Shown: positions 34-43,829 of the stretch, in pieces | Numbering within the stretch: the stretch's first letter is position 1 | How the letters are laid out: each line of letters opens with the position of its first letter | Translations under genes and position numbers: made by a program | NCBI RefSeq assembly: GCF_963676685.1 | Contig: NC_092350.1 | Span: 30,318,001-30,382,000 of the forward strand | From: Mytilus edulis | Lineage: Eukaryota | Direction: 5' to 3' | Length of the DNA stretch: 64,000 bases | Notes under the pieces: generated by a model | What the model was told of the DNA's origin: nothing | Databases searched by the model: none | Seen by the model: only the letters and a program-made list of their open reading frames with translations

Positions 34-361
34 TTTATTGGAACAGTGTGATTCTAAAACTTGATTATCATAACTTTCAGAGAAGTATAAACACTGTTTA
101 CTAATTTTGTTTGACTCGTAGATTGATTTCCAAATTCCGACAAAATCATTCGAAATTTGAATATTAATGATTACAGATAGTTCACTTCAAGAATTTGATC
201 TTATATTCCATGGAGAGAGACACTAACATTCCTAATTCCGTTGACTAGTGTAACAGTTCTATCATATATCAGTCATTTATTATGAAGCTGAGAATAGTGA
301 CCTATATCAGTGGCTCATCCATACATAGGGAGTGACCCTCAATTAGGTACGGTGACTTCAT
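34..361 (-). other. Candidate terminal exon of the secreted-protein gene (completes Gly codon, TGA at 358-360, then 3'UTR)
   Basis: Acceptor acgcag|ATGA gives ...YCG-stop. AATAAA on the minus strand at 34-39. The gene could instead continue beyond the window. Confidence 0.35.
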
Positions 362-729
362 CTGCGTTGTCAAAGTTATTATTAATTTTTGGTATACTAT
401 AGTTTAACCTACAATGAATATAAACAAACACTCAAGATGTACAAGTTATAATGATTTACTCTAAATCAAGGATTCAATTTGTCTTGAACATGCATGAACT
501 ACTTGCCACTGGACGTTAATCAACTGATAACCAGCAATTAATTAATCAAGCAATGATAGGGATGGAATTATATTCCTCTGGTTCATCGTACATTGTAGCA
601 AGTTTGGGAGAATTGTAATTCCTTTGAGTAAACAAGTCATTAGCAGATAGAACTACAATATTTTAAATCATCACATTTCACTCAAAACTTTTATCACTTC
701 TAATTGCTTATCAAATATTAATATCTTAC

Positions 730-825
730 CCGCAGTATCTCTCCGCCTGTTCATATGCAGCCTGAATTTTCAAGGCAATGGTAGATTTACCTTTAAAGAC
801 GTCCCTCCCAGCCTTTTTAACTTGT
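730..825 (-). CDS. Secreted cationic protein, internal exon (QVKKAGRDVFKGKSTIALKIQAAYEQAERYC)
   Basis: Acceptor ttacag, donor GTAAG, 96 nt, phase 2-2. C-terminal part resembles exon 13166-13273 (IEKAFKLADRYC vs IQAAYEQAERYC). Confidence 0.65.
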
Positions 826-922
826 CTGTAATTTATTTAATGCACATTTAAGTCCTTTTTTATTCGTCAAATACGAATTCGAACAAATTAGTTTCTTTCA
901 TTTTGCATAATAAAACTCAGAA

Positions 923-1226
923 AACAAGAATGTGTCCCCAGTACACGAATGCCCCACTCGCACTATCATTTTCTATGTTCAGTGGACCGTGAAATTGGGA
1001 CAAACCCTCTAATTTGGCATTAAAATTTAAAAGATCATATCATAGGGAACATGTATACTACGTTTGAAGTCGATTGGACTTCAACTTCATCAAAAACTAC
1101 CTCGACCAAAACTTTAACCTGAAGCGGGACAGACGGACGAACGAACGGACGAACGAACAGACGGACGAACGGACGCACAGACCAGAAAACATAATGCCCC
1201 TCTACTATCGTAGGTGGGGCATACAA
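923..1226 (+). mobile_element. HINE/pearl-like non-autonomous element (Helentron-associated type), one core unit
   Basis: Starts AACAAGAATGTGTCC, ~160-bp core, (GACG/GAAC)n microsatellite, 3' palindrome ATGCCCC...GGGGCAT. Second copy at 1923-2375. Confidence 0.7.
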
Positions 1227-1922
1227 ATAATATTGAATGATTAATTCCGAGTTTGAATAAAACTTTTCCTCCCCTAGACAAACAAGTCATACAAAAAGCA
1301 AGAGGCTGTAATGAGTTTTCGTCGTTCACCATGGTCTATATGCACTTTGAACTATCGACACTCTCTAACATAGAATAGAATTCATGACAAAATTCTTGTT
1401 TTAGTTGATTTTGTATTACTGATAATTTTTTCTGTTTATAATTTCTATCGATATTTTTTTTTTTTTTTTTTTTTACCAAAAAACAAAACAAAAAAGTGTA
1501 TGAAATTTTTATTTGAGGGCAATCAATTCATTCCGATTCTAGTACTAATACTGTCTATAAAAGATGGACGAAAGGTACCAGAGGGACACTCAAACTCATA
1601 AGTCGAAAATAAACTGGCTAAAAAGTAAAAGACCAACAGACAAACCATAGTAAACATAACACAAACATTAGAAATATGTTTTATACGAGATACCTCAATG
1701 ATGAATGTACTAAATGAATGAATTTGACAAGTAGTTTTACAGGAGAAAATTTTTGTAAAAGTTAGCAGACACAAACGGATGTCGACGGAAGCCGGACGAC
1801 GAACGCCAAGTGAAGAGAAATGCTCACTTGGCCCTTTTTGGCTGATGAGCCAAAAAGGATTAATACAGTATAAATGCTACTGATATTCGCATGTAAACAA
1901 TGCAATAGTTATTATACTATCT

Positions 1923-2375
1923 AACAAGAATGTGTCCAAAGTACACGGATGCCCCACTCGCACTATCATTTTACATGTTCAATGGACCGTGAAATTGGGT
2001 AAAAAATCTAATTTGGCATTTAAATTATAAAGATCATATCATATGGAACATGTGTACTAAGTTTCAAGTTGATTGGACTTAAACTTCATCAAAAACTACC
2101 TTGACCAAAAACTTTAACCTTAAACTCCCACTTTCTTTTATTATGTTCAGTGGACCGTAAAATTGGGTTCAAAAGACTAATTTGGCTTTAAAATTAAAAA
2201 GATGATAATTATCATAAGCAACAAGTGTACTAAGTTTCAAATGATTGGACTTCACCTTCATCAAAAACTACCTTGACCAAAAACTTTAACCTGAACGGAC
2301 GGACGCACAGACGCACGAACAGACGAACGGAGCCACAGACCAGAAAACATAATGCCCGTAGGTGGGGCATAAAAA
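1923..2375 (+). mobile_element. HINE/pearl-like element, copy with two tandem core units
   Basis: Same termini as 923-1226. The core (atgttcagtggaccg...accaaaaactttaacct) is present twice, followed by the microsatellite and terminal palindrome. Confidence 0.7.
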
Positions 2376-5300
2376 AGAAAATCCTTGTTGTAACTAGGTG
2401 CTCAATGTCAACGTCAATGTGTATATATATTTGTAACGCTTCTCATTTTGCAAGCATTGTTCGAGTAAGGGTGTAAAATGGGACATTTAACCTACTGTAT
2501 AATAAAAGAATAATATTGACAACTAGGATTTATCATGTTCTCAGTTGAACCAGGAAGAATTAAGCATGTTACAATTCCGAAATAAAGTCCACTGAAACCC
2601 ACAGACAAGCATGGAAATAACATAGGAATTACAAAAACTCCTAATGAAGTGAGACTGGGGATAGAACGAATAAGATTCTCCAACATTACATGTCTATATT
2701 GGCATATGCAAACACGCAAATTCAATAACAAAATCTTATTCTAACATAATCGATTAGCAAATGATGAATATAATTTTATCAAGAAAAAACATATATTTAG
2801 AATAACAAAATTCAATTTTTAAATGAAATTATGGTTGTTTTTGAAATTTGAGTACTCTCATATATGTAATTAAGTGTCTTTTTTTAGATGTATTTATGTT
2901 TGTACCCATCTAATGAGTTAAACCTTTTTCAACTGATTTTATTGTTCGTTCTTATGTTGTACTGTTATACCACTGTCCCAGGTTAGGGAGAGAGTTGAGT
3001 GCCCGTTTACATGTTTAACCCTGCAACATAGTGTGTGTATGTGCCTTTCCCAAGTCAGGAGCCTTTAATTCAGTGGTTGTCGTTTGTTGCTGTGTAACAT
3101 ATTGTTTTCGTTCATTTCTTTTCTTCATAAATTGGACTGTTAGTTACCAATTTTCAATTGTTTTACATTTGTCATTTCGGGGCCTATAATGAGTATTTGG
3201 TTTGCGCATTGTTGAAAGCTGTACGGTGACATATAGTGTCATTTGGTTTCTTGTGGAGAGTTATTTCATTGACAATCATGCCACATCTTCTTTTGTTTTA
3301 TACAGGCTTAAAAACACAGTGATCACCAAATACTAGAAACAAAAGTCGTATTCATTTTAATGATAGATATATATCTTAATATTTGAACCTAGCTATCTTG
3401 GTTTTGCTTATGTTCGGACTTAAAAGAGTAAAAATTACGTAATGTACGTAATGAGGAGGAATTTTTATTATGAAATGAATTACTTAAGGTTGATGGATAA
3501 ATGGTTTTCTTGGTATCTTTTTCGAGGCTTATTTCCGAAGAATAAAAAAGAATTATCATTAATTTCGCCAAGAAAACTCTATACACCATGTTTTCTTCTT
3601 ATTGGTGTTGTGCGGTTTATATACTCGCTTAAGGTCTAGTTAATATAGATTATAACACTATGTACATCGAGTGTAATACAGTATTTCTCCAATTGATTCA
3701 GTTGATAGATACAATTTTAAACGTTAATATTCGGGGGTTGAAACTATTTCTCTTAAATAATGATTTTTAGACGTAAGGAAGACAGCCTCCAACTTTTCTT
3801 TTCAATGATCGAGAAATAGGTGTGTTCTTTGTATGTGCCTTGCGTCAGTTAGTGTTGTGGGAAACTGTTGAGAATCGCGACTTGATATATTTCTAGTAGT
3901 CTTGTCTTTGTAATTTATCAATGTGTTACATTTTCTATGTTTGATTTTCCATCAGCTGCAAATCCTTTCATTTTTTTCTTAGGTATTGTTGATATATTTG
4001 TATTGTTTTATATTATTTCGAAGAATCAGTAAAAGACATACCTAGGCATAGAAAACTTTGGCAGTAAAAATTTGAGTCTTTCATCAACCTTCACACTGTT
4101 ACTTCTTAGCGTTGACCTTTCACTAGGGAGAAGGCATTTATTCTCAGTGCCATCAACATAAACTACACTATACAATACTGATAAAAGTACTGCATATTCC
4201 TGAAAAACAATGAAAACTCCCTATTACCGGCTATTGGTAGTGAATATACACCATATAATATATCAAACGAGACGGTTTTTTTTCGACACAGAAGGTATGT
4301 AGATATAAATAAAAATATATGTCAAAGTGCCAATGAGAAAACTCTCAATCCAAAACACAATGTATAAAAAGTATGTAATTATAGGTCAAAGTACGGCTTT
4401 CAACACGGAGCCTTGACCATACACATTTTTTAGCTGTAATACAATACTGCGACTTCTAGTATCATGAACAGCTACCCATTTTGTCTACTCTTAAAAAAAA
4501 AGAATATGGAACACAAGTTTTACTCTTTGGATAATTATGCTCTTGTAATCATTGACCCTTTCTGTGTTCATGTGATCTGATTTTGTTAGCTTAGGTAGTT
4601 CTTCAGTCATGCACATTAGCCCTCATTGTCTTACAATCATACCACTTCAACCAGTTATATTAAAAAGTAATTAAATTATATAAAACGATAAACTGAGAGC
4701 TCCGATTAAATATCGTCTAGTGGGCAATATTTCAGTCACATTTAAGGCGATAATTTGATATCATATGTTCATGAACGGTACTTTGTACAAAACTTTATTT
4801 CAAATTTTAAAAAGTATATCTAGATTATCAAATACAAATCAGAAAATTAAGTAAAAATTCTTACCTTCAAATGCATAATGTCTCGTTTCTTTTTCTACTT
4901 TTGTGAATTTATGCATGTTTATTTTCATACCTAATGTGCTTGTTCAAACTGTTGCAGGATATGAACTTTGTTGTAAAGTAAATCATCTTAACTACATACG
5001 GTTGATTTGTAATTTATAAATTCTCATATATCTAATATATTATGACTTACGTATTAATATAAGTAATTTATTCATTTAGCTAGGAATTTGAACACTGCAT
5101 ATATAATGTAGAATATGCAATACAGTATATCTATAAATAATAAACGCACAAATCCTTGTGTACTTTTGACTTGTAGACGACGTTATTTTCACTGTACCAT
5201 CTGCTTGAAGCAGGAACTATGTAAATCGTTTTCAATGAAATTTTTCTTTCATCTCAAAAAATGTAACAGAAAAGAAAGGATTTGGCGAATTTTTAAAACA

Positions 5301-6219
5301 TGAGCTCAACTTTATGTTGAATGCAAATATAATAGTTATAATTCGCTCATGATTATATGTTTGGCAAGAGCACCTAGTTATCTCAAAGTTTTTTGGGCGT
5401 GATTTTGTTCCTTGTCATATGATAAAAATTCAAGAACTTGTGTTTCTTACATAAAAGAAATGAAGTTAAAGGTTTCAAACAACAAAGATAAAGTAAATCC
5501 CTCGGAAATATTATGAACGCCACCATGATTTCGATGACTTTATGGCCAAGTACCAATATCTATACATATATGAAAGAACGCAGCTAATATGTTGAACTTT
5601 TTGTAATAACAATACCTTTCTAGTTTAATCGATTGCAGCATCCCAGAGTTCGTCTTGTTTTTGTAGTTGTTTTCTCACCTCAGAGTAAAGATTTTCGTAC
5701 GCTTTTACTGTTTTTAATGCTGTTTCATTGTTATTTACTTCTGTGGTTGTCCGTTATTTTTTTATTTATAGTTTTTGCTTGCAAAATGTTATCGGTTTCC
5801 TCTTTTTTAAAGTATTGATATATATTTTAAATTTGCATCGATAAGACATCTTATTTTTCGTTTTTGTTGTCAATATTATGGAATTCCATGCAAATGTCGT
5901 ACAGGTGAGAGATTAAGCTAGCTATAAAATCAGGTTTAACCGACCATTTTCTAGATAAGAAAATGCCTGTACCAAGTCAGACTATGACAATTGTTTACCC
6001 TTCGTTTGATGTTTATGAGCTTTTGATTTGCGAATTGATATTGGACTTTCCGTTTTGAATAATAATAATAATAATAATAAATTCTTTATTTAAAGAGGGT
6101 AAACTCAGTTAGTGAATGGCCATTGGAGTGCTGTATATTTGCAATTTTACTTTTTAAATACTTCATTTCATTATACTAATGTTGAAATTGTTTTCCCACG
6201 ACTTCAAGTTGTTGTCGTT

Positions 6220-6665
6220 ATACATTCTGATTTCGAACCTGTTTTAGGACATTTATTGGTAGATACCTGAACCAAAACATGTTTTATGACATTGTCTGTT
6301 TTTCTATGTAAAAAAAAAATGCTTGTGGACACTTTTCGGTAGCTCTCTGTACCAGAAGATGTTTTAGAACATGTGTCAGTAGTTGTCGATACCGGAAGTT
6401 TTAGAACATTTTGCAGTATATTTATGCAACAAAAATGTTTACGACATCTAGTTCTCTGTACAAAAGATGTCTTAGAAAACATTTGCCTGTAGTTTTGTCT
6501 TCTAGAACCTGTTTTTGGACATCTGTCAGTAGGTTTCGGTATATGAAAATGTTTAATGACAGTTGGCAGCAATTCTGTGTGCTAGAACTTTAGGACTGTG
6601 TCTGTAGTTCAACGTAAAATAACCTGCTTAATGATACTTGCCAGTAGCTTTCTGTACAAGATGAT
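6220..6665 (+). repeat. Degenerate left flank of the 40/41-bp satellite
   Basis: Recurrent TTTTAGRACATYTGTCAGTAG-like motifs. Explains spurious ORFs 6204-6572 and 6411-6593. Confidence 0.75.
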
Positions 6666-6679
6666 GCTTTATTTTTGTA

Positions 6680-6872
6680 CATAAAATAGGCCGTTAGTTT
6701 TCGCGTTTGAATTGTTTTACATTGTCACTTCGGGGCCTTTTATGGCTGACTATGCGGTATGGGCTCATTGTTAAAGGCCGTACAGTGACCTATAGTTGTA
6801 AATTTCTGTGTCATTTGGTCTCTTGTGGAGAGTTTTCTCATTGGCTGTCATACCACATCTTCTTTTTTATAT
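6680..6872 (+). mobile_element. Abundant non-autonomous interspersed repeat (family A, possibly Helitron-type)
   Basis: GGCCGTTAGTTTTC...GGCCGTACGGTGACCTATAG...CATACCACATCTTC. Related copies at ~2850-3300, 4315-4420(-), 19052-19248, 20885-21135(-), 25655-25890(-), 27480-27985, 28070-28170, 28440-28695, 44715-45150(-), 59375-59495. Confidence 0.7.
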
Positions 6873-6875
6873 TTA

Positions 6876-8712
6876 TGACATATGTTACTAGTTCTCTGTA
6901 CAATAACCAGCTTTAGGACATATGTCAGTAGTTCTCTGTATAACAACCAGCTTTATGACATATGCCAGTAGTTCACTGTACCTGATCCTGATTTAGGACA
7001 TATGTCAGTAGTTCTCTGTACAAAAACCAGCTTTAGGACATATGTCAGTAGTTCTCTGTACAATAACCTGCTTTAGGACATATGTCAGTAGTTCTCTGTA
7101 CAATACCCAGCTTTAGAACATATGTCAGTAGTTCTCTGTACAATAACCAGCTTTAGAACATATGTCACTAGTTCTCTATACAATAACCAGCTTTAGAACG
7201 GTCAGTAGTTCTCTGTACAATAACCAGCTTTAGAACATATGTCAGTAGTTCTCTGTTCAATAACCTGCTTTAGGACATATGTAAGTAGTTCTCTGTACAA
7301 TAACCAGGTTTATGAGATATGTCAGTAGTTCTCTGTACAATAACCAGGTTTATGACATATGTCAGTAGTTCTCTGTACAATAACCTGCTTTAGGACATAT
7401 GTCAGTAGTTCTGTGTACAATAACCTGCTTTAGGACATATGTCACTAGTTCTCTGTACAATAACCAGGTTTAGGACATATATCAGTAGTTCTCTGTACAA
7501 TAACCAGCTTTAGAACATATGTCAGTAGTTCTCTGTTCAATAACCTGCTTTAGGACATATGTAAGTAGTTCTCTGTACAATAACCAGGTTTATGAGATAT
7601 GTCAGTAGTTCTCTGTACAATAACCAGGTTTATGACATATGTCAGTAGTTCTCTGTACAATAACCTGCTTTAGGACATATGTCAGTAGTTCTGTGTACAA
7701 TAACCTGCTTTAGGACATATGTCACTAGTTCTCTGTACAATAACCAGGTTTAGGACATATATCAGTAGTTCTCTGTACAATAACCTGCTTTAGAACATAT
7801 GTCAGTAGTTCTCTGTACAATAACCAAGTTTAGGACATATGTCAGTAGTTCTCTGTACAATAACCTGCTTTAGAACATATGTCACTAGTTCTCTGTACAA
7901 TAACCAGGTTTAGGACTTATATCAGTAGTTCTCTGTACAATAACCAGCTTTTGGAAATATGTCGGTAGTTCTCTGTACAATAACCTGCTTTAGGTATTAT
8001 GCCACTAGTTCTCTGTACAATAACCAGGTTTAGGACATATATCAGTAGTTCTCTGTACAATAACCTGCTTTAGAACATATGTCAGTAGTTCTCTGTACAA
8101 TAACCTGCTTTAGGACATATGTCAGTAGTTCTCTGTACAATAACCTGCTTTAGGACATATGTCACTAGTTCTCTGTACAATAACCAGGTTTAGGACTTAT
8201 ATCAGTAGTTCTCTGTACAATAACCAGCTTTTGGAAATATGTCGGTAGTTCTCTGTACAATAACCTGCTTTAGGTATTATGCCACTAGTTCTCTGTACAA
8301 TAACCTGCTTTAGAACATATGTCACTAGTTCTCTGTACAATAACCAGGTTTAGGACTTATATCAGTAGTTCTCTGTACAATAACCAGCTTTTGGAAATAT
8401 GTCGGTAGTTCTCTGTACAATAACCTGCTTTAGGTATTATGCCACTAGTTCTCTGTACAATAACCAGGTTTAGGACATATATCAGTAGTTCTCTGTACAA
8501 TAACCTGCTTTAGAACATATGTCAGTAGTTCTCTGTACAATAACCTGCTTTAGGACATATGTCAGTAGTTCTCTGTACAATAACCTGCTTTAGGACATAT
8601 GTCACTAGTTCTCTGTACAACAACCAGGTTTTGGACTTATATCAGTAGTTCTCTGTACAATAACCAGCTTTTGGAAATATGTCGGTAGTTCTCTGTACAA
8701 TAACCTGCTTTA
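6876..8712 (+). repeat. 40-bp tandem satellite (TTTAGGACATATGTCAGTAGTTCTCTGTACAATAACCWGC), about 45 homogeneous units
   Basis: Direct 40-bp periodicity. Degenerate units flank it at ~6220-6665 and ~9178-10170. Confidence 0.95.
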
Positions 8713-9177
8713 GGTATTATGCCACTTAATAATAGTACGTCACATCCGGTTGCATGAAAATAGGTCGAAAAAAACATTTCCTTGAATTTGGCAGTTGTAG
8801 GTAATAAGTCCTACTATTCGTTGCATTAACACATTTCTGGGTCATAAACATGTATCTTGAGTGTTTCAAAGCACCAATATTTTATTCATTTGGCGTTTCT
8901 ATAGAATATTTTGTAAACTTGAAGTTACATGGTGTCTAAACCTTGTACGCATGTTAAAAAGAGGTGAACATTTGATTGGTTTACTTCCAGTGATGGTCAT
9001 TTTCTTATATTGAATGGAATGTTATGTGATTTTTTTTCCCTATTGTATTAAACAGGATAAAACTTTACTCATGCTAAGTATTTCTTTATTTGAAACAAAG
9101 ATAAATTCTGCACAATTTTTTGAAAAGTGCAAATTAAACATTGACTAATAGGGGAAAATCAATGATGGCATTTCACC
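8713..9177. mobile_element. Kolobok-like non-autonomous DNA transposon inserted in the satellite
   Basis: Begins GGTATTATGCCAC, ends ATGGCATTTCACC (imperfect TIR). TTTA is duplicated on both sides, and the satellite unit resumes in register. Confidence 0.6.
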
Positions 9178-10170
9178 TTTAGTACATATGTCAGTAGTTC
9201 ACTGTACCAGAACCTGCTTTAGGACATATGTTAGAAGTTATCTGTATCAAAACCAGTTTAGGACATTTGCCTAAGGTTCTCTGTACCTGATACTGCAATA
9301 GGACTTTGTCAGTATTTATTTGTATAAAACCGTTTAGGACATTTGTCAGTAGTTATCTGTACTTGATCTTGCCATATGACATTTGTCAGTAGTTATCTGT
9401 ACTTGATCCTGCCATATGACATTTGTCAGTAGTTATCTTTACTTGATCCTGCCATATGGCATTTGTCAGTAGTTATCTGTACTTGATACTGCCATATGAC
9501 ATTATTAAGGACGTTGTCAGTAGTCTTCTGTTCCCGATCCTGCTGTAGGAAGTTTGTCATTAGTTATCTGTATCCAACCCTGTTTAGGACATTTATCAGT
9601 AGTGTTCTGTACCAGTGTCAGTTGTTTTATGTTAAAAAACTAGTTTTATGATTATTTAGGTTGTTCTCTCTACCAAAGACTTTGGCAATATTTCTCTGTA
9701 TCGAAGATGCTTTAGGACATTTGCAATAGTTCTGGATACCAGAGTAGTTATTTGTGCTAGAATCTGCTTTATGCGATCTGTCAGTTGTTCTCTGTACCAA
9801 AACTAGTTTTAGGGCAGTGTCGGTTTTTATATGTAAAATAACCTACTTTTGGACACTTGTCAGTATCTTTTTGTACTAGAAGATGTTTTAGGAAATCAGT
9901 CAGTAGTTTTCGATATCGGAACCTGTTTTAGGACATTTGTCAGTAGTTTACTATATCAAAGATGGGTTAGAGCATTTGTTAGTATTTCGCTATACAATAC
10001 CCTGCTTTAGGACATTTGTAGTGTAGTTCTCTGCACACAAACCTATTTAGTACATTGTTTAAGAAATTCTTTGTACCACAACTAACCGATTTAAGAGCAT
10101 TGTCATTTGTTTTGTGTAAAAGAATCTGCTGTAGAACATTTGTGAGTATCTCTCTGTACAAGAAGATGTT
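9178..10170 (+). repeat. Degenerate older portion of the 40/41-bp satellite
   Basis: Recurrent TTTAGGACATTTGTCAGTAGTT-like motifs at about 41-bp spacing, with a short 41-bp sub-array at ~9340-9500. Confidence 0.8.
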
Positions 10171-10904
10171 TCACGATACTTGATTGTTGTTCTGTGTGTT
10201 ATTCTTTGCTAATGTTTTTTTATGGATAGTGAAAATCAGATAATTCTGCGTTTCCTTAATGTCGAAAGTGTTGTTTATTCAATAATAACTGACAATGATT
10301 AACATCGATACCTGCTTAACAATGGAAACATATTTGCTTTCTAAAAAGCTTTAGATGTGAGGAAATGAATAATGTGCTGAAAGTGCTTTCTGAATGAACG
10401 TTTCCTTTGAAAGAAGTATAATAATAACCTCTTTACCAAACTAAATAAGGTGTTTATTTTCATGGATAGTAAGGGGAACAAGAATATGTTACAACTCTTT
10501 TTATGCCATTTCTGTGTATCTAAATCAAAGGAAAAATGATTTTTTAAATCGTTTATTACGTAGTATGTTTACACGTTAATTGACTACACTCACAACAGCG
10601 TGATACCGTTAAAACTTCTTTCACAATATCGATTTTGTTACCCCTTTTACAGATAGCGTAAAACGGAATGTCTACAAAACTGGATAGTTGACAAATATAT
10701 TTTACTACAGGAACAGCTTTAGGATCTGGGTGATCTTCACCAAGGGCACATTTTCCACTGTGAAAAAAATATATTTAAAAAAAATCAAGACAATATTTGA
10801 ATATTAAACTGATTCAATTTTTCTTAATCACTGAGATGTAATCATTTGTAACGTTGCCTGACAATATCTAAGTAATATAACACTTTTTGGAGACATGTGT
10901 TAGT

Positions 10905-11090
10905 AAAAAGTAAAATCACAAAAATACTGAACTCCGATGAAATTCAAAACGGAAAGTCCCTAATGAAATGGCAAAAGCAAATGATAAAAGACACTAAACG
11001 AATGGATAACAACTGTCGGATTCCTGATTTTTTACAGGCATTTTCAAATGTAGAAAATGTTGGATTGAACCTGGTTTTATAGCGCTAAAC
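10905..11090 (+). mobile_element. Interspersed repeat family B
   Basis: AAAAGTAAAATCACAAAAATACTGAACTCCG...GGAAAGTCCCTAA. Related copies at ~12022-12160, ~60898-61150 and inverted at ~5850-6060. Confidence 0.65.
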
Positions 11091-11579
11091 CGATCATAGA
11101 AAGTATGGTTCAAACTCCATTTGTCAAAGTTGACCGAAGAGGAAATTGGTTATTCTTGAAATTTTCTTAAATGTCATAGTTTTATATTGTACCAGATTTT
11201 ATTATTATTATTATTGAATTTTACACTTTTATATGTTACTGTAAAATATAAATATAATAGTTATTGTTAACAAGTCGTATGACTATATATGTTATCCTGT
11301 TGAAATCAAGAAAACTAGTGTTATTATTATTACAAAAGATCCTTTATAGGTTCCAAGCAATATCATATCCTTGAATTTCAATTTATTATTTATGGTTGAG
11401 CATTCTGCACAATGAAAGCAAATCTAAAAAACGCTTCGAACACGGCACAAAATTAATAAAAAAAAAACATATTTACATGAGATTTGAGTTTAGGTTACTG
11501 CTCTTAAAAGGTTATTTTGGTTCTTAAGACGAAAATGTGAAATTCATTGCAATATTGAGTGATATTCTGTAATTCATAC

Positions 11580-11765
11580 CTTTCACAGTTATATGTTGGA
11601 CAATTTGGTATCTTCAAAAAGTTCTTAAGAGTATAGCATGCCATCCCATTTTCAGCGATAAAAGTCTCTGGAAATTGCGCTTTGCTCCAACTTCCTGGAC
11701 ACAGTACAGTCTTCTCAAAGTCCTTTACTTTGAATCCAGTAAATGTAGATGTAAATGTTGGCTTT
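11580..11765 (-). CDS. Secreted cationic protein, internal exon (KPTFTSTFTGFKVKDFEKTVLCPGSWSKAQFPETFIAENGMACYTLKNFLKIPNCPTYNCE)
   Basis: Acceptor gttttag, donor GTATGA, 186 nt, phase 2-2. Lies within track ORF 11504-11791. Confidence 0.7.
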
Positions 11766-12409
11766 CTAAAACATAGTAAATTGAGTTGCACATTGTTTTA
11801 CACATCAGTAATTGGCTTTTTGGAACGAAAACCAGTATGCTAGAACTTTTTTTTTCTCAATATCTTTCGGATTGAAATGCTTTGTTATACTGTTTTTTTT
11901 TTTATCATTTATCTTTATCATAATTACCGTGTCAATTTCCATATAATCACAATTATATCACCTATTTGCCTCTACGAATTAAAACATGTTTAAAGGTTAA
12001 AAAATGCAAAACCAACTTCGCAAAAAGTAAAACAACAAAAATACTGAACTCCGAGGAAAATTCTAAACGGAAAGTCCCTAATCACATGGCAAAATCAAAT
12101 GATAAATCATATCAAACGAATGGACAACAACTGTCATATTCCTGACTTGGTACAGGCAAATCATCGCTTACACTTTCAACGCTTTATCAATTAATTCATC
12201 GCAATTTTTGGACTGCTATTTAACACGTGGAAATGCAAATCCATCAATGATTGTCTTACTCGACACGTATGCTTACTATTGTTTAATATAAATATGGTTG
12301 TTTACTGAGCTAACAGAATATCTTAAACCCGGAAGGATGGATAACGTCCAGCGTCAATTTTTAAAACATATTTAGGACGAGAGCATGAAATGTAATATGA
12401 TTATAAACC

Positions 12410-12650
12410 CTTCTTTGTACTGAACCGCCATGCTAATTCGAATTTTAACGTGCTAGTTTACAAGGTGGTCGTCTATAGGAAGACATGTCACCCAAGTTAT
12501 TATGATTATAAGCCGACCAGATTTTTCTCTTACTACTTGATACCGCGCGTCTAGCGGAGAAGCAGAAAATGTTAATTTTGAAGTTGAGGGTTGACTTGGT
12601 TGAGTTCGAACCTAAGGATTCCAACACTCGAGGCAAAATGGTACCACGAA
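12410..12650 (-). mobile_element. Degenerate tRNA-derived SINE
   Basis: Minus strand reads GCCTCGAGTG...GGTTCGAACTC (B-box-like)...TGCTTCTCCGCTA...GACATGTCT...CTAGCAC, resembling mollusc SINEs as I recall them. Confidence 0.5.
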
Positions 12651-13165
12651 ATGCCAATGCGGTGAAAAATTCTACCGAAAGGAGTTCATCTCCGGAATAA
12701 AAAAAACCCCTGAAGACCACTTAGCAGGAAGAAAAAACTTCTGATTTGTCATAGTAAAGTGATATATCATGTTACTTTATAATCTTAAATATTACAACAA
12801 TGCCTTAATTAGTATATAGAATAATGGGCAGATTAAAGTGGTTATCTAAAAAATAATAAAAAAACCAATATCAAGGATGAACTATAAAAGTTCTCAGCAA
12901 CTTGTTTTAAAAAAACATTTTTTTTAAATTTATGACGATTTCATATTGTGTGCTATCCAATCTTTCCAGGTTCCACCATCACTAAAAGATGGCCGCCATG
13001 AAATACCCAACTTTGCAGAAAACGCCGTTAAATACCAAATAATTAATCACTAATACCAGGAACATGTATATTGTGTTTTTTTTTCATATATTTTTCAAAG
13101 AAGACTTTGACTGTATACTGTAATATTTTATACAATGTACTTTTAATGATTATAAATGAACTTAC

Positions 13166-13273
13166 CTACAATATCGATCTGCTAGTTTAAAAGCTTTTTC
13201 TATTTGATTATTTAGGGAACGAAATTTTCTCCTCCTAAACCTTAATCTCTTCATGAAAATATCGAAGTCTCTC
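13166..13273 (-). CDS. Secreted cationic protein, internal exon (RDFDIFMKRLRFRRRKFRSLNNQIEKAFKLADRYC)
   Basis: Acceptor ttttatag, donor GTAAG, 108 nt, symmetric phase 2-2, open frame. Confidence 0.65.
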
Positions 13274-13991
13274 CTATAAAAACAGTAAATGATGTCAGTA
13301 GTTCTCTGTACAACATCTTTGGTCCGCAAATATCAAAATCATCAAAAGGACCTTAAGAGCTACGTCTTCGCAGCTACCATAGAACACAAATGCACTTTTT
13401 TTTTATTCAACTGACCATTTTCTGATGTTTGTTCGATCAAATTATCCACCAATGCTCGTCTTTGTATACTAGTTTTACATAGCATTATATGTATTTTGAT
13501 TTTGCACTTTAATGGTTTTCAAATAAGACTTAGAAATCTTTTCAATCTTTTGGAAATATAAACATATTCTACTGAGTACTGTCTCATATGAACAATTTTT
13601 CTCACGTATTTCGCTTTTAACATTTTAATACATAATTTTTTTTTGTCTTAGTCTCCGTTTCGAATCGAAAGGTCAATGGGTAATGTCATTAGAACAATAC
13701 CTTACTGATAGAACTTAACAATATCAATATATTTGTATCCACAGATCGTTTGATTCTGAAACGGCAAACCCCGAAACCCCTAAAACAATAATAATGTCAA
13801 GTTTGGTTGAATTTTCTTTTATTATGACATTTGTTAGCCAATTACACACGCGTTTAGGTGTACGATTATGAAACTATTATCTATATTTCATGAAAGATTC
13901 GTAGCATTAGTAAAAAGATACTTTTATATGAGAAACTGGTGATTGTTTTGCCTATGAGTCCTGAAATGAAAATACTTTTCTTGACACTTAC

Positions 13992-14119
13992 TGTGGAAAG
14001 CCCTTCGATTTTGGCTTTTTTGAAAATCTTGCAGCTCTCTCGCTGGGTAAAAGACATTTATCTGACTGTGCATCAGCAAGATGGTATAAGACTAAAGTGA
14101 TGGCACTGACCAAAATAAT
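13992..14119 (-). CDS. Secreted cationic protein, coding exon 2 (IILVSAITLVLYHLADAQSDKCLLPSERAARFSKKPKSKGFP)
   Basis: Acceptor ccacag, donor GTAAGT, 128 nt open (phase 0 to 2). Hydrophobic core ending in A-D-A, a signal-peptidase-like site. Confidence 0.65.
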
Positions 14120-14529
14120 CTGTGGATGGATATAAAACAGTCACAAAGGAAGAGTGATTAAAAAGACACAATATTCATTTACCGTTTCCTTCTTAAGACT
14201 TCGAAAATTACAACTTCCAAAATCTAAATCTTATTTTCAAATGAAAAAGAAATCATAATGATCGGTTTTCATTGTACTAGAGTAACATCTATGTATATAT
14301 GTATAATGCCTCCTGTCCGGCTAATGAACTATTTCGTCATTCGTTACTCATTTTGATAAATGCTAGTTACTATCGGCCATAAAACGTAACATCATGATGT
14401 TTAAAAAATTTGAAGTTTCTTGAAGCTGCATTGGTATCTTTCTATAGTACAGAGTGACACAGTCCTTGACACACTGAGAAAGGGGAGATAATCTATAATG
14501 TTACGCTACAGAACTCACTTATATAAGCT

Positions 14530-14760
14530 TAGATTGGATTGATTATTAGTGTTTTAACGCCATTTTAAAGCGCCACTTTTGGGCTATTTAGTGGCGGCCA
14601 GCTTTTATTGGTAGCGGAAGCCAGAGTGCCAGGAGGAAACCACCGACCAGTCACCTGCGATAAATAGGAAAACTGACAGTCATTAGAATCGAGTGCACCT
14701 GTACGGGCGGAGTTCGAACTCACAACCTCAGTGTTGACTGGTTAATGATAGTACAGTAGT
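14530..14760 (-). mobile_element. tRNA-derived SINE remnant (second family)
   Basis: Plus strand TTTTAACGCC...GTGGCGG.CAG.TTTTATTGGT...GGAAACCACCGACC...GTTCGAACTCACAACC, the reverse complement of a SINE with a B-box. Confidence 0.55.
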
Positions 14761-16584
14761 ACAGGCGGAAACCCGATTGAAATAGAACAAAAGAATCGAA
14801 GCTCTTTGATAGAGAAGGCGATAAATGCTTACTGTAATGTTTACTGTAGTAACCCAAAAAATAAAAGTTAATAGAAACAAATAAAATGACAATTTTCTTC
14901 TCAATTACGAAGTGTTCTATTATAAAAACACCATTTGCATAAGGTTTTAATTTATCTATTACATAGTTAAGCAGAACAATTAGATATCAAGTCGACGACA
15001 TGCGTATCTATCAAGTTGGATGTAGAAAATGCATAACCTCCGATTTTTTTGAAAAAAATTACCACGATTGGAGAACATATCAATCCATTAGTTCAGTAAT
15101 TGTCGTGTCTGCCCTTCCATTATGTGACTCAAGAAAAAAATATATAAAATGGGTTACAATTGTATCGAAAAGAGAAAACCGAGTGCACCTTTTTATGTTA
15201 GTGCGTGTTTGAGTGGAATATTTTGTCCTGAAAACGTATAAAGCAAGAATATTTGATACATCATCTCGCTTCAGATTCTATCACTTTTATATATCAAACC
15301 TACAGGTTGACTTTATAACATAAAAAAATCACAGTACTAAAAGATGAAATATATGGGTCAAGTGAAATACCTATCTAATGAATCATAAAAACAGAGAAGG
15401 TGTGTTCGAATAGCTATTTTTTATACTAAAAGTACTTGACGACAGTCTTTCAAGTTGTATTCATGATGAAAATGCATATCTTCAAAAAAAAATGTTTGTG
15501 TGTGATAACGAAAGGTTTATAGTCTTTAACCATTAAACAAATCTAGTCTGTCCTTCCACGAAATATTTAATTAGAATTTTTTTTAAATGTTTATGAATTT
15601 TCAAATCTTTCACCTGACAACCGATTAGACAATAGTTTTAAGTTGTATCAATGCAGACAAGATTATTAACTGATGTTCATTAGCTAGAAGATACATTTGT
15701 CTTTTAAAATACAACTGACGTATAAGGATCGTAATAGTGCTATGCGGATAAATCTATCGGATTTCAAGAGCAAAATTGGCAACGCGTCATCCCTACAATG
15801 GCTTCCATTTTTACGATTGTGAAAATTAACTGGCGTAATGGGGAGATAATTTTGACGAAGTAGATTCCTGACTGAGTAGAATTACTTAAACCACTATAAG
15901 CTTAGATGTATCGTCTTAAATATGTATGTATCACTTGCCAGTGTACGTTAAGCAACCGACAGTAAATAAACCCAACATAATTTATAGTTAATAACGAAGA
16001 GTTAGTTTTAAAATAACGATAACAACCATATAGTCTCTAGCAAAAAATTCGAATTTAAGCATAATTTCTAAACTTCCAAATCTATCTTTTATCCAATTTT
16101 TTGAAGAACTCACCTGTAAATGCATCTTTTCATCCAATGGTATCTGTCATATCAAACAAAATGGCACAACTGGTGCACAATCTAATTTCATATAGATTTT
16201 GTATCCATGAATGCATTTCTGAACAGTTAATTTGTCTAGTTACTTATAAATTGTATACAGCATTAAAATTATGCAAAACTATAATAAATAATCAATAGTG
16301 TAAGAAATAAGGAAATAATTTCATAAAAAAAGAATTTATGATTACGAAGTATTACAGAAATTCTTTATAAACATGTTAAATACGACTTTAAATGGATTCC
16401 TATTTTTTTTCGCGTTCTTAATCAGTTTCAATATATATTATATATGTTATGTATATTTGTAATTAGTAATCTTGTTTTTAAGCGTACGAGCAGCATGTGC
16501 TTCCTCGGGTAAGTTCTAAGTTCAGAAGCAAAAAAAGTGAGACAGCAAAAAAAAAAAAAAAAACCCAATGCGTTCGATATTGCA

Positions 16585-17020
16585 TAAAGGAGGATCGAAA
16601 TATACCAGAGGGACATTCAAACTCATAAATTGAAAAAACCTGACAACCCCATAGTTAAAAAAGAAGAAAAAAAGGTAAACAGACAAACAATAATACACAA
16701 AACACACCATAGAACACTAAAGACTAAGCAACGCGAACCCCACCAAAACTAGGACTGATCTAAGGAGCTCTGGAAGGATGAGGAGATCCTGCTCCACATG
16801 TGATACCCGTCATGTTGCTCATGCAAGTTCAAACCCGGTAACAAGTCTGATATTAGGTTGGTCACATTCGTGAAAAGGGGACGAGATTGTAGTTACGATA
16901 TTACAAACATATCCGCTATCATCTGTGAAACAGATATTCTATAATGGTCAACTGGCGTCCGTAAAATTTACGAAGGGATGATTTCAACTTCACCATCTAA
17001 TTTGGAACTCTTGGTTTACG
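16585..17020 (-). mobile_element. Penelope-like element 3' remnant
   Basis: Minus strand encodes degenerate VKLKSSLRKFYGR..DH...SVSQMIAD, followed by a conserved 3' non-coding tail. Related pieces at 1560-1665 and 61150-61740. Confidence 0.55.
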
Positions 17021-17758
17021 AGCATAACATGCTAGTCACTGTTGACGCTAACTCGTGACAGACGCTAACTAATTGATATTTCAATTGTTAAGTGTGTCGA
17101 TAGTAGTATTCTAGTAAGGTACACAGGATAAAACTATACTTGCTGATTGTTTATGTATATGATATTCAAATGTAGATTCATAATTCTTTCAAGGGATCAA
17201 AAAGTGTAAGAACGGTTAAATTCATAACCTAGAATGTTCATATTATTTTGAGGCCGTACTTAACTTTCCTGTTTCTTGACCACATGTAACAGGATCGTTA
17301 TTTAAAAAAAAGATATTACAGGGAAAAGCTGTTTGTGTTTTATTTTTTTGTAAAAGTTATTGATGACCATGAAATTAAGTATTTGTACTTGATGCCGCCC
17401 GAGACAATTCAATATTGTTACATTGGCTCCTGACGGGATCAAACTGGATACAGGGTTTACAAAAAAATCAAACTCTTATATACCAAGTTGTGATGCATTA
17501 CGTTGATTAGAGAAGAAGAAGTAAACAAGGGTTAATTTTCCCTGACCAAACCTGACCGATCTGGTCATGGGATTAGTATTGAAACAATTTTAGGTGAGAA
17601 AGAAATAGAAGTTCAAGACGACAAAATAACACCAATAATGATAAAAACTATTGAGCCAAAAAATAAATAAATCGATAAACCTTGTTTAGCTGCAATTATA
17701 ATTCATATATAAGAAAGGAATATCCCTGGCATGTTTGGATCTGAAAATAACTACTTAC

Positions 17759-17782
17759 TCCCAAGACAGAACGAAAACTCAT
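17759..17782 (-). CDS. Secreted cationic Cys-containing protein (unknown family), coding exon 1 (MSFRSVLG)
   Basis: Acceptor-like ttgcag just upstream, ATG at 17782, 24 nt, then donor GTAAGT. Phase 0, joins in frame to exon 13992-14119 to form a signal peptide. Confidence 0.6.
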
Positions 17783-19051
17783 TTTCTGCTGCAATATATA
17801 GAGGAAAGCATGATTGTGTACAAAATCTAACATACATAGATAAGCCGCCTTAGCAACAGGTAAAATATTATATTCCGCCCGCATTAAATCATTCTATCTC
17901 CCCTTACAAACACCATCCCCGGGAGTTTCAAATTGTTGTCTCCTAATCATATACATTTGTATATAATGATATCATATATATCCTACCTATAATTTCTAGA
18001 CATGATCTGTCATATTAATTACAAGTTTTGATACCATTGATACAGCAGAGTCGATCATTATCTTTGGCATTGCTATTGACAGAGATCCGGTTTAAATGAA
18101 ATTTGAACACCTATGTATTCAATGTATATAAACTGATTATCTAACTGTGTGGTCTTAAACGACCTCAACTGGCTGGTAAGCCATCACAAGGTCGACTCGG
18201 CGTCAGAAGGCGTTTGGTGAGCGATTAAATATTTTGTTGACGTAATAATGAAACGTTGGAATGGACGATTTTTTTTGGTACGATTTTTTTGGTTTGTTGA
18301 TTATTTTGTACTATTTCATTGTGGTTAACTGTCTTCACAACGGCTGCTTTCAGAGCCATGTAGTTTACCTGTCAGTTTTGCAGCCCGCTTACCACGATGA
18401 TGAAGTACTGGTCGATAAGTCGATAAATTTTGTGAGCACTGCATATGATGTTGATCATTAACGTAAGGCAGTCATGGCTTTCCATATAACAACGTTCTGG
18501 AATAACGACGTGACGTTATTTCATTTTGAGCTACCTCCAATGAAATAATACACAACATCGATCCAACAATTGCAAAGCGTTGGCTAGCAGTCATATTCAG
18601 AGGTATAATTCAAAATAATTTTCAAGAGAGTGAAGTCCTTTTAATCATGTTAGTATCTTGAAATAGATATAAGGCCAAAGTTATGATTTTTTGGTTTGCT
18701 CGTTTTTTGTAGTCTTTTTTATTGTTTTCAATACAAACTTGTAAAATATTTTATAGTTTTGATGAATATTTTGTAAAATATTTTCAAATAAAAGTTAAAA
18801 AGAAATACCATTTAAATTGGAAATGTTTAGTTTTTTATGGTGATTGTGTGTCTATGTGTGGGTGTGTGTGTAGATATTCTTAATGGCTGGCTGGTTTTGA
18901 AAATATGACGACACAAAACTTTATGAAACACACTCACAATAATCAATTTGTTAGTAATTAACTTTATGCAAATTTAAAGATAAATCAAGTGTCATAACTC
19001 TTGAACGATAAAAATGGAAACAACAAAAAGTGAAATTCATTTTTTTTTATA

Positions 19052-30931: not shown

Positions 30932-32625
30932 TTGCGTCGCTTTACTAAACAAAATAACTTGAAACAAAGGGCATATTGTCAACCCTCTCCTTTCCGTAAT
31001 GTTATTTTAAGAATTAATTTCGGTTTGCTATGGTCTGATCAATAACTGTATCGGATGCAAATGGAATAGATATTTACAATATATTTCCATAATAACGAAA
31101 AAATACAAAGTGGAATTGGATATCATAATCAGCATATATTCTAAGTACATGTAATATCAAATTATTATAATAATAATCATATGAAAATACAATTTAAATG
31201 GAGAAATAGATAATCTAATGTATGAAAATAACCTTCTGATTCCATTCATGTCTTATAAAATACAAGGAAAGGCAACCCAAATGTTTTATTTCATTTTGTG
31301 TTGTATTTATTTTTCAAATTCGTTATTTGGCATACGCAATCAATGTAACAACGAATTGATATTTTTTTCTGAAAGAACGTAGTAAAAGCCTTTGTTTTGT
31401 ACCTTATTTGAAAATTATATCCTTTTCGTTCACACATTTGTGATGTTTTCTACCAACTATCCTAGCGAAATGTGATAATTTGCAAAACATGTGGAGCTTG
31501 AATCGACAAGATTTGGTGACATAAACTTTATGTCGTGATTTCGGAAATTGCATGTTATAAATAATAACATTGTAACAAGGTATAAAAATCGATAATTTTT
31601 CATTAAAGTTTACCCGTATCGAGCCATGATGTTTCGTCGAAGCAGGTTTCATATTCATATCACATGAATATCCTCCTGTCTTAATATGATGTACTTTTGG
31701 CAACTAGACATTTGAATACAAGTCAATACCTATATCAATCTTGATAGTTCTGTACGATTATTGTATGAATTTGAAATCCAAGGAACATTTATTTTTATAC
31801 CAGACTGTATACAGTGGAGATCACTTCTAACCTCTCATTAGAACTGTCAGAATATTCTGTCATAGAACTGTTCTAACCTGTCCTAGAACAGTTCTAGCTA
31901 GAACAGTTCTACCCTAGATTTTGAAGGTGATCACCGGACGTGGAGGAAGGTGGACGTGTTTTCTGAGCTGACCTATTCTGTCGCCTACACTTACCCGCAC
32001 CCACTTATTAGTTGATTGTGTCATTACTCAAACACTAGTGCAAGTATTTGACAATTTATTGTCATTTAATAGTGGTTTTAGCAGAAAATTAATTGCGAGT
32101 GAAGGACAGGTAACATAGCGTCACCCAGCGCCATCTTGAAAAAAATTTCAAAACTTTCAAAGCAAAGGTGTTAAGTCTATACTTCACCTGAAATTAGTCT
32201 CTCCTTTCCCGGGAAACACAAGAACAATGTGTTGCTGATGTTTACTGAATTTTTAATGAACTTTTAACGAACTTTTATTGTCCATTATTTTATCCAAATC
32301 GAGTAGCTTGAAAATGATCAGTATTCTTGTGTAGTTTCACAGTCTGTGTACTCGTTCTCATTCTTCATTTTACCTTTTATCGCTTGATAAATTTTTTAGA
32401 TTTTATTGTATGTAGTAAGGTTTTTCATTTTACCTTTTAAAACACTTGAATTAAATTTTAAGCCAGTACTTAAGTAAGTTTGTGTTACTATAAAGTGTTT
32501 TATAATCAGTTTTTAATTTTTAAACTGTCCTTGATGTAGCACATGTTAGCAGATAAGTTATTTTTGCTCAAAAATATTTTTGTGTAAATCTATTACCACA
32601 CTCATTAAATTCTTTTTGGGGTAAA

Positions 32626-34638
32626 ATGGAAATTGCCAGAAGAAGAAGTGATCGAGTTAAAGGAAAGAAAGTAATGTTTACTCCCTGTAAAACAGTATCT
32701 AATACTGCAACAAAAAACAAGAAGTCTAGTAGTAATAGTAGTATTAATGAAAAAACTGTTGATTATGAATTAAATAAAAGAAAGGCTGTTAGCAAGAAGC
32801 TTGATGCTGCCGAACGGTTGTATACAGTAAAAACTGAAATAAGTCCAGGTAATCTGGTCCTTATCTTCTCTGCTGTTGCTTATGAAGAATTCAAAGTTAT
32901 AACACAGTCAGTTGTAAATAACACTGGTCTGCAGATAAATAAGACTGAGACTAAGGATAAATTAGGTGCCATTGTATCTGAATCACTGGCGATCCATAAT
33001 GGAAGCACTAAATTATTTGTTTTGAACTTTTTTAACACCACAACAAAAGTCCTTCTGAATGGCAACCAATCATATATAAAGGAATTTATAACCACTGCTC
33101 TCGGGGACATATTGTGTATTCTTGACCGTAACTCCAAATTTAGTCTTATAAACAATCAAATCAGAGAATATTGTAAAATGTTTTTAGATAACACGCAACA
33201 AAGTAATCTGGACACAGCAAGTAAAGATGAGCAAGGGGTACAAAGTTTAAGTAAGAATTCAATGGTTAGTTCTAAACAACAGACAGTGGGGACCTGTTCT
33301 AATATTAAGCCAAAAACTACTCAAAGTGACATCTTATGTCCAACATGTAAGAAGGTCTGTGGAAATGACTCAAAGGCAGTAGAGTGCGACATATGTAATG
33401 TATGGGTCCATTATAGCTGTGAAAAACTTGGTCTAAGTGACATTCATGTAATTGAAAATGACTTAACAGCAGAGTATATCTGTATAAGCTGCAAACAGTT
33501 GAGAGCCTTGCAGGCTGATTGTGTAGTAGGAGGGTCTATCTCTGATAATAGTAATGACTCAAGTAAGGGGGAAGAAATGCCAAGATCGTCCCTCTCAAGT
33601 GCTGATATTAACCCCAAGGCTCGGGGGTCGGTTGTTTCTGGTGTTACTATAATACATAAAGACAATAGACTGTTTTCTAATAATAATTCCACAAATGATG
33701 AGGATATAAATAAGGAAAATTCAAGAAGTGATAGCTCCTATAGTTCCGTACAAATTGGTTCAAACATTTTAAAAGAAGAAATAATTTCTCTAAAATTAGA
33801 AATTACTCATAAAGATAAAGGAATCAAGCAAAAGGACAGTCAAATTTATAAGTTACAAACAGAAGTGTCCACTCAGAAAAAAGAGCTTGCAGCAAGTAGA
33901 GCGTATGCTATAAAACTGGAAAATGACATTAGGGATTTAGAACACTCTTTGTTAATTCAAAAACAAAAACAAAGTTCAAGCGTGAATGCGGACTTTAACA
34001 GACAAAGCCCTTTTAGTGATAATAGTAATAAACCCGAATCAGAAAACTTAAAAAGTTGGTTTCTTGAACAGAGGATGAGGCAAATGGAAATGGAAATTTG
34101 TAAACAAGATAATAAAATAAGTAATCTCAGTGATAAACTGTTGGACTTGAGATTTGACAACAATAATCAATCAACACGGTCTCGACAAAGGCAAAATAGA
34201 GGGAGGCAAAATAATGCTAATAAGTACAGTAGAAACGAAAGGTCTCAATTTGATAGACATAGTGAAAACAAGCACTGTAAATTTCAGAATGATTTTGCAG
34301 ATTTTAGTGGGGGCATGTCATTTCGGCACGATGAATTCCAACCCAATAGTCTTCACATTGATACTAGTGGTAGTGAAAATGAGACCAATTCTGTGGTTAA
34401 TGGTCAAACAAACAATAGTGATAATTTTTTAGGGAATATTCATTCCAGGGGGAAATCAAAATGTCAAACACAAGCAAGGAAAAGATTTCACGAGAAATCG
34501 GAGCAAATATATATACCCCCAAGAAAGCAAATGAAACAAGTACCGCCGAGGTTCCAACGTCTTCAACAGGAAAAGTTGGGTTGCACACAGAGAGACAATT
34601 TAATGATGCCCACAATGGGCCAATCCACAAAAATGTAG
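32626..34638 (+). CDS. LINE ORF1 protein with PHD finger and coiled coil
   Basis: C4HC3 PHD: CPTC...VECDICNVWVHYSC...YICISC. Heptad-rich segment LKEEIISLKLEI...IRDLEHSL. Confidence 0.85.
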   Translation: MEIARRRSDRVKGKKVMFTPCKTVSNTATKNKKSSSNSSINEKTVDYELNKRKAVSKKLDAAERLYTVKTEISPGNLVLIFSAVAYEEFKVITQSVVNNTGLQINKTETKDKLGAIVSESLAIHNGSTKLFVLNFFNTTTKVLLNGNQSYIKEFITTALGDILCILDRNSKFSLINNQIREYCKMFLDNTQQSNLDTASKDEQGVQSLSKNSMVSSKQQTVGTCSNIKPKTTQSDILCPTCKKVCGNDSKAVECDICNVWVHYSCEKLGLSDIHVIENDLTAEYICISCKQLRALQADCVVGGSISDNSNDSSKGEEMPRSSLSSADINPKARGSVVSGVTIIHKDNRLFSNNNSTNDEDINKENSRSDSSYSSVQIGSNILKEEIISLKLEITHKDKGIKQKDSQIYKLQTEVSTQKKELAASRAYAIKLENDIRDLEHSLLIQKQKQSSSVNADFNRQSPFSDNSNKPESENLKSWFLEQRMRQMEMEICKQDNKISNLSDKLLDLRFDNNNQSTRSRQRQNRGRQNNANKYSRNERSQFDRHSENKHCKFQNDFADFSGGMSFRHDEFQPNSLHIDTSGSENETNSVVNGQTNNSDNFLGNIHSRGKSKCQTQARKRFHEKSEQIYIPPRKQMKQVPPRFQRLQQEKLGCTQRDNLMMPTMGQSTKM

Positions 34639-42293: not shown

Positions 42294-42519
42294 TTTTAAA
42301 CATATATAGACATATATTTGAGCTGTTTTGATCATTGGTTAGTACTAAAGTATCAAAACATGTGAAAGGTAGATGACTTCCGAGACTCAGAGGTTGTAAA
42401 TAAACAATTAGTTTTAGTAGCAATTAATCACATACTTTAGATAAGATTACAAGTGTCATAAAAAGTGATAATGTGTGAAATTTAATAAAAACGCTATAAG
42501 GATCTTGCGTCATCTAGTA

Positions 42520-43829
42520 TTTTCTTGTTTCCGAATCCCGATCTGCGTCATCAATCATAAACCAGGGGAGACGGATCTATACTAGTCTTTTCTTGTTTCC
42601 GAATCCCGATCTGCGTCATCAATCATAAACCAGGGGAAACGGATCTATACTAGTCTTTTCTTGTTTCCGAATCCCGATCTGCGTCATCAATTATAAACCA
42701 GGGGAGACGGATCTATACTAGTCTTTTCTTGTTTCCGAATCCCGATCTGCGTCATCAATCATAAACCAGGGGAGACGGATCTAAACTTGTCTTTTCTTGT
42801 TTCCGAATCCCTATCTGCGTCATCAATCATAAACCAGGGGAGACGGAACTATACTAGTCTTTTCATGTTTCCGAATCCTGATCTTCGTCATCAATGCTTT
42901 ACAAGGGGAGACGGATCTATACGAGTATTTTCTTGTTTCCAAATCCCTATCTGCGTCATCAATCATAAACCAGGGGAGACGGATCTATACTAGTCTTTTC
43001 ATGTTTCCGAATCCCGATCTTCGTCATCAATCATAAACCAGGGGAGACGGATCTATACGAGTATTTTCTTGTTTACGAATCCCTATCTGCGTCATCAATC
43101 ATTAACCAGGGGAGACGGATCTAATCTAGTCTTTTCTTGTTTCCGAATCCCGATCTGCGGCATCAATTCTTTAAAAGGGGAGACGGATCTATACGAGTAT
43201 TTTCTTGTTTCCAAATCCCTATCTGCGTCATCAATCATAAACCAGGGGAGACGGATCTATACTAGTCTTTTCATGTTTCCGAATCCCGATCTGCGGCATC
43301 AATGCTTTACAAGGGGAGACGGATCTATACGAGTATTTTCTTGTTTCCAAATCCCTATCTGCGTCATCAATCATAAACCAGGGGAGACGGATCTATACTA
43401 GTCTTTTCATGTTTCCGAATCCCGATCTTCGTCATCAATCATAAACCAGGGGAGACGGATCTATACGAGTATTTTCTTGTTTTCGAATCCCTATCTGCGT
43501 CATCAATCATTAACCAGGGGAGACGGATCTAATCTAGTCTTTTCTTGTTTCCGAATCCCGATCTGCGTCAACAATGTTTAACAAGGGGACACGGATCTAT
43601 ACTAGTCTTTTCATGTTACCGAATCCCGATCTGCGGCATCAATTCTTTAAAAGGGGAGACGGATCTATACGAGTATTTTCTTGTTTCCGAATCCCTATCT
43701 GTGCTTCATCAATCATTAACCAGGGGAGACGGATCTATTCGAATATTTTCTTGCTTCCGAATCCCGATCTGCGTCATCATTGTTGAACAAGGGGACACGA
43801 ATCTATACTAGCCTTTTCTTGTTTCCGAA
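42520..43829 (+). repeat. 68-bp tandem satellite, about 19 copies
   Basis: GGGGAGACGGATCT-like motif at 42565, 42633, 42701, 42769 and onward. Confidence 0.95.

Follow-up and report, generated by a model that had tools for sequence, protein, structure and literature searches.

A tandem pair of Mytilus edulis genes encoding predicted cystine-knot proteins of an unclassified family

The stretch of DNA analyzed here (the window) comprises 64,000 nucleotides of Mytilus edulis contig NC_092350.1 (G000:C7:30318001-30382000), with ∼32% GC, from a genome of 1.37 Gb. On its minus strand it holds gene A and the first three coding exons of gene B, parts of which an initial annotation had joined into a single five-exon gene for a secreted, cationic, cysteine-containing protein with an internal repeat. 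A and B are two tandem sister genes that arose by whole-gene duplication. Their products are predicted to share a cystine-knot growth-factor fold, and we consider below what such proteins might do.

Gene A, gene B, and their surroundings

Three of the five exons originally joined stand as exons 2 to 4 of gene A, with the AG/GT ends and phases (0-2, 2-2, and 2-2) given for them. The supposed fifth exon belongs to gene B, and a further gene A exon had been overlooked. This exon begins 822 bases past exon 4, keeps the frame, carries a C-C-x-C motif and 7 of the 13 cysteines, and ends in a stop codon. Junctions were examined in contigs of four runs over window positions 10300-18000, the RNA type of these runs being the tool's guess. 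The GT-AG joint 10757/11580 between exons 4 and 5 appears in contigs of X2 and X8 (two of the four runs, from two studies), as does the GT-AG joint 11765/13166 between exons 3 and 4, while the GT-AG joint 13272/13991 between exons 2 and 3 appears in contigs of X2. In a second alignment, the letters of exon 3 trail exon 2 as loose ends in three of the four runs (X2, X3, and X7). The RNA check proposed by the initial annotation therefore bears out the 2-3 and 3-4 joints, and exon 4 continues into the overlooked exon 5.

Together with a first exon of four codons, exons 2 to 5 make up the RefSeq protein XP_071122989.1 (P0004, 211 residues), identical throughout. Upstream lie three ATG..GT[AG]AG first-exon candidates, among them the one originally chosen, which is absent from the database models examined. 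The four-codon exon is the first exon in RefSeq models of four Mytilus species, and its first three codons match exon 1 of gene B. The RNA contigs stop short of both exons and favor neither. At the other end, termination at the TGA at 360-358 would require an extra 4-base exon, which is unsupported. A second M. edulis annotation contains a 175-residue model (P0005) in which the symmetric exon 3 is skipped in frame, with loss of the polybasic helix and Cys82; this could be a real isoform or an annotation slip.

Exons 1 and 2 of gene B sit within what had been read as the last intron of the single gene, and paralogues of A exons 4 and 5 lie to the left of the window (42% and 48% identity, respectively). 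Joined by their coordinates, the five gene B exons reproduce RefSeq XP_071122985.1 (215 residues), again identical throughout. RefSeq lists A and B as separate uncharacterized proteins that are ∼39% identical. They have in common five exons, the phases 0,2,2,2, a 186-base exon 4, and all 13 cysteine positions.

These results change the reading of the internal repeat. The two similar modules are the exon 3 ends of gene A and of gene B, and because they lie in separate genes, the repeat within one protein is an artefact. Their similarity is real (2 of 5000 shuffles reach it), only it holds between two genes, and what had been taken for symmetric-exon duplication is the tandem duplication of an entire gene, with the two copies merged into one model. 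A single, internally repeated cationic effector built by exon duplication does have in its favor that the chimeric join keeps the frame and that both exon ends are alike. Against it, RNA-type contigs connect exon 4 to exon 5, the exon at 825-730 is part of a complete separate gene, and the chimera would lack most of the knot cysteines, so that we give this model almost no credence.

Several further observations concern the two genes. A partial third copy, matching exons 3 to 5 of gene B, lies left of the window at G000:C7:30305988-30301525 (L005, L006) and, over 158 codons, shows 10 synonymous changes and a single non-synonymous one relative to B. There are RefSeq isoforms that end in it. No exon 1-2 match was found for this copy, which could represent either a duplicated haplotype or an alternative 3' cassette. 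Two other database models, P0013 (gene B run into a CARD-domain gene) and P0011 (gene A with extra C-terminal sequence), are probably annotation errors. The remaining features of the window are listed with the exons in Table 1; the rhodopsin-family G protein-coupled receptor (GPCR) upstream of gene A may resemble GPR19.

Table 1. Coordinates of the two genes and of other features (window positions unless a contig is given)
Feature	Position	Strand	Remarks
Gene A coding exon 1	16114..16125	-	4 codons, phase 0; RefSeq XP_071122989.1
Possible alternative first exon (initial annotation), unsupported	17759..17782	-	ATG..GTAAGT, phase 0
Gene A exon 2	13992..14119	-	Hydrophobic signal-peptide-like stretch, Cys26; junction to exon 3 in RNA-type contigs
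Gene A exon 3	13166..13273	-	Phase 2-2; polybasic predicted helices, R-x-R-R at 58, Cys82
Gene A exon 4	11580..11765	-	Phase 2-2; first half of predicted knot, Cys105, 126, 138, 143
Gene A exon 5	10556..10757	-	Long predicted beta hairpin, Cys148, 167, 181, 199, 200, 202, 207, stop
Gene B coding exon 1	4865..4876	-	4 codons, phase 0; start of XP_071122985.1 (P0012)
Gene B exon 2	4042..4199	-	Paralogue of A exon 2, tblastn 42% over 36 residues, E 6e-4
Gene B exon 3 (fifth exon of the initial annotation)	730..825	-	Part of XP_071122985.1
Gene B exon 4	G000:C7:30317341-30317156	-	Left of window; paralogue of A exon 4
Gene B exon 5	G000:C7:30313887-30313695	-	Left of window; paralogue of A exon 5
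Tandem array	6872-8714		40 bp x 46, between genes A and B
GPCR frame	23292-22171	-	374 residues, 7tm_1, E 1.7e-37; ∼6 kb upstream of gene A; nearest solved relative neuropeptide FF receptor 2
LINE-type element	32557-38051	+	693-residue frame with PHD finger; 1209-residue frame with endonuclease and reverse transcriptase
Tandem array	39306-41149		260 bp x 7
Tandem array	42514-43829		68 bp x 19
GNAT acetyltransferase exon(s)	46411-45524 and 49177-48623	-
Recurring unit	about 51200-54700		Every 1737 bases, three times
Another zf-RVT frame	63919-62570

Predicted fold, cysteine layout, and taxonomic range

The fold was approached by AF2 modeling (two models) and by three fold searches, VIA and Foldseek among them. 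The models place N-terminal helices before two beta-finger pairs, that is, two pairs of antiparallel strands in the topology of the growth-factor knot. Nearly all fold-search matches fall within the superfamily of cystine-knot growth factors, with low scores and no single family standing out. Based on these models, A and B very probably adopt a cystine-knot growth-factor fold.

The cysteine layout is consistent with this prediction. All 13 cysteines are kept in both proteins, and C105, C143, G146, C148, C167, C200, and C202 are invariant in the eight aligned rows. A and B thereby carry the six invariant cysteines, the glycine before Cys III, and the terminal C-x-C by which the superfamily is recognized in the available excerpts of PMC4079206. 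Every one of nine family sequences contains C-C-x-C and a C-x-x-G-x-C ring, and none contains C-x-G-x-C. A fingertip gap of 13 residues (Cys IV-x13-Cys) precedes the terminal C-x-C in 9/9, and in 5/5 when compared with shuffles. Outside the knot, a hydrophobic N-terminal stretch was found by hydropathy in both proteins (A being run with the first exon of the initial annotation), and the helical region is basic in both, with 21-24 Lys and Arg against 8-9 Asp and Glu. The hydrophobic N-terminus, polybasic stretch, and cationic character described initially are thus present (isoelectric point 9.5). The proposed convertase site is found in gene A of all four species and is absent from gene B (R-x-[KR]-R in 0/4).

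Protein searches covered 5.8 billion proteins and 1.84 billion representatives, the latter with four hits, one of which was dropped as spurious. Matches occur only in Mytilus edulis, trossulus, californianus, coruscus, and galloprovincialis and in one further 149-residue record (P0008) that is 41-44% identical to A and B. Because the representative search used a single-sequence query, distant bivalve relatives may have been missed. The view that this is a real spliced, cysteine-rich protein of narrow range with no family name, matching no well-described family, was sound. The knot is more conserved than the pro-region, both between A of M. edulis and of M. californianus (87/98 versus 50/62 positions) and between A and B (40/95 versus 18/61).

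Proposed action and competing readings

Our current hypothesis, which we hold at about even chances, is that A and B are secreted, matrix-retained, short-range cystine-knot ligands for a cell-surface receptor and form an unclassified family. Most members of the superfamily are secreted ligands or traps for ligands, as described in excerpts of PMC4079206, PMC11087794, and PMC9071555. Removal of a signal peptide would be followed by secretion, which is likely for both proteins. The knot would then be formed by Cys105-167, 143-200, and 148-202 (I-IV, II-V, and III-VI), with Cys126-181 tying the fingertips and Cys26-82 tying on the N-terminal piece; Cys138, 199, and 207 could add one more bond within a chain or between chains, as seen in the usual dimers. 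The basic helical region would hold the protein on sulfated matrix near its source, and a furin-type cleavage at residues 58-65, in gene A alone, could set the knot free or activate it. The working form would probably be a dimeric knot, the fingers of which may bind the ectodomain of a Toll-, Trk-, Torso-, or IL-17R-type receptor. Toll receptors of invertebrates reportedly require a Spaetzle-like helper, and bursicon and trunk are present in molluscs, according to the excerpted text of PMC5484132 and PMC6425005.

A number of points weigh against the ligand hypothesis. Neither Pfam (7/7 proteins without a match) nor a sequence search of the PDB returned a match, all Foldseek matches stay short of E 0.001, and VIA gives at best a Z of 5.4, which is below the tool's trust level. 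The alignments behind the AF2 models are shallow (7-8 rows), and the predicted local distance difference test score (pLDDT) is <50 at residues 13-40 and 88-103. In the Atlas search, the gene B knot scored 0.89, which is a lead only, and one third of shuffled proteins also obtain ten matches from the same clan. The cysteine pattern scored against shuffles was picked after the spacing was already known. Finally, a shared fold says nothing of function, and neither of the two best VIA matches is a receptor ligand, one being a ligand trap and the other a clotting protein.

The first of these functions is the substance of a reading that we regard as unlikely: an extracellular trap resembling Noggin, DAN, or sclerostin, in which the knot would bind BMP/TGF-beta ligands or LRP co-receptors and heparan sulfate would anchor the protein through its basic helices. 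In the VIA search Noggin ranks first, aligned over model residues 15-204, although it appears only at Foldseek rank 39; Gremlin, SOST, and NBL1 are within the top 12. The Cys-x13-Cys fingertip gap is shared with 9/10 mussel DAN or Cys_knot open reading frames (ORFs), yet the strict C-x-G-x-C DAN pattern is found in full in 0/5, and other contigs carry the mussel Noggin and DAN genes. Heparin-type XBBXBX motifs occur in 3/3 A proteins but in 0/3 B proteins.

A coagulogen-like role, in which a basic, disulfide-rich precursor is cut in its helical N-terminal part and polymerizes to a gel, clot, or adhesive matrix, appears improbable to us. Coagulogen itself (PDB 1AOC) aligns structurally over the whole length and, like A and B, is basic, with helices followed by a knot. 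As for A and B being subunits of an obligate heterodimeric hormone of the bursicon or glycoprotein-hormone type, at least M. edulis and M. coruscus retain both genes, the two are adjacent in the M. edulis genome, and their cysteine scaffold resembles a hormone-type knot (PMC4079206, in excerpt). The adjacency, however, is explained by tandem duplication alone, and the long pro-region stands in contrast to the short hormone N-termini described in the same excerpts; we rate this possibility as improbable. It is also distinctly unlikely, in our estimate, that this is a cleavage-activated knot family taking on a role so far unassigned in molluscs, as the endogenous Spaetzle-like ligand of bivalve Toll receptors or as a coagulogen-like gelling protein. 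Such a family would have been overlooked because no Pfam model scores, and one 2009 survey recovered no Spaetzle from lophotrochozoans, as far as the excerpts of PMC2772990 go. No evidence was found for the antimicrobial, byssal, or gamete effector suggested initially; the fold predicted for both proteins is a growth-factor cystine knot.

Among the processes that cystine-knot factors drive are immunity, nerve growth, and patterning, and the divergence of these factors takes them past the reach of sequence search. A and B represent a mussel family with its own cysteine layout that is invisible to Pfam and filed as 'uncharacterized', and they are concrete candidates for endogenous ligands of bivalve Toll, Torso, or IL-17 receptors. 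Their significance is nevertheless below what was first supposed, with the repeat false, both gene models already public in RefSeq, and the function putative.

Comparison with named cystine-knot families

Genome searches for the named families proceed one exon at a time, and their counts are lower bounds. Spaetzle (PF16077) gave no match over the cut-off, only the neurotrophin below it; the one mussel neurotrophin match is over its cut-off, on C10. IL-17 (PF06083) gave 32/33 matches over the cut-off, none on C7, the contig of A and B, and Noggin (PF05806) gave 2/4, both on C9. DAN-type (7/8) and Cys_knot (5/6) matches over the cut-off are on other contigs than A and B as well.

None of these names could be given to A and B. 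A neurotrophin assignment (NGF, PF00243) was rejected with the motif of Fig. 5 in PMC2772990, as excerpted, in 0/9 family sequences, Pfam at 0/7, and extra cysteines beyond the six of the knot. Spaetzle was rejected with Pfam at 0/7 and with C126, C138, and C181 inside the knot, unlike Spz1/2; Noggin and IL-17 likewise fail at 0/7. A DAN, CTCK, or glycoprotein-hormone assignment fails on the ring, which is C-x-x-G-x-C and not C-x-G-x-C. A and B are assignable to none of neurotrophin, Spaetzle, IL-17, Noggin, DAN, and Cys_knot, and because none of the named families tested fits, they are likely an unrecognized branch of mussel signaling molecules.

Each family nevertheless shares something with them. 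The fold searches return IL-17 matches, and Atlas clusters contain 13-22% IL17 members; A and B differ in having no Pfam score, and the 32 true IL-17 matches are on other contigs. Spaetzle and the neurotrophins have the same order of signal, pro-region, and C-terminal knot. Neurotrophins top the Foldseek list, the first Atlas match falls in the Spaetzle and neurotrophin group, and the extra cysteine adjacent to knot Cys V, seen as C-C-x-C in 9/9, is placed as in Spz1 and Spz2 (PMC2772990, in excerpt). A and B differ from both in five extra cysteines within the knot region or immediately behind it and, again, in the lack of a Pfam score. Noggin, Noggin-like proteins, Trunk, and PTTH resemble A and B in the helices before the knot; A and B differ in a much longer first finger and in having no Pfam score. 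An N-terminal clip of Noggin is described in excerpts of PMC9071555. With DAN, sclerostin, bursicon, and the glycoprotein hormones (CTCK; PF03045, PF00007), A and B share eight core cysteines in the same order, the 13-residue gap, and the terminal C-x-C, whereas their long basic pro-region with two cysteines sets them apart. The ring spacing C-x-S-G-x-C recurs in the mussel ORF L051 (G000:C13:55592560-55592805), likely the trunk-like gene, which scores below the Noggin cut-off and aligns by hhalign to the mussel IL-17 and Noggin sets with probabilities of 68 and 79. The cysteine layout of A and B is a mosaic of Spaetzle, Trunk, and DAN traits.

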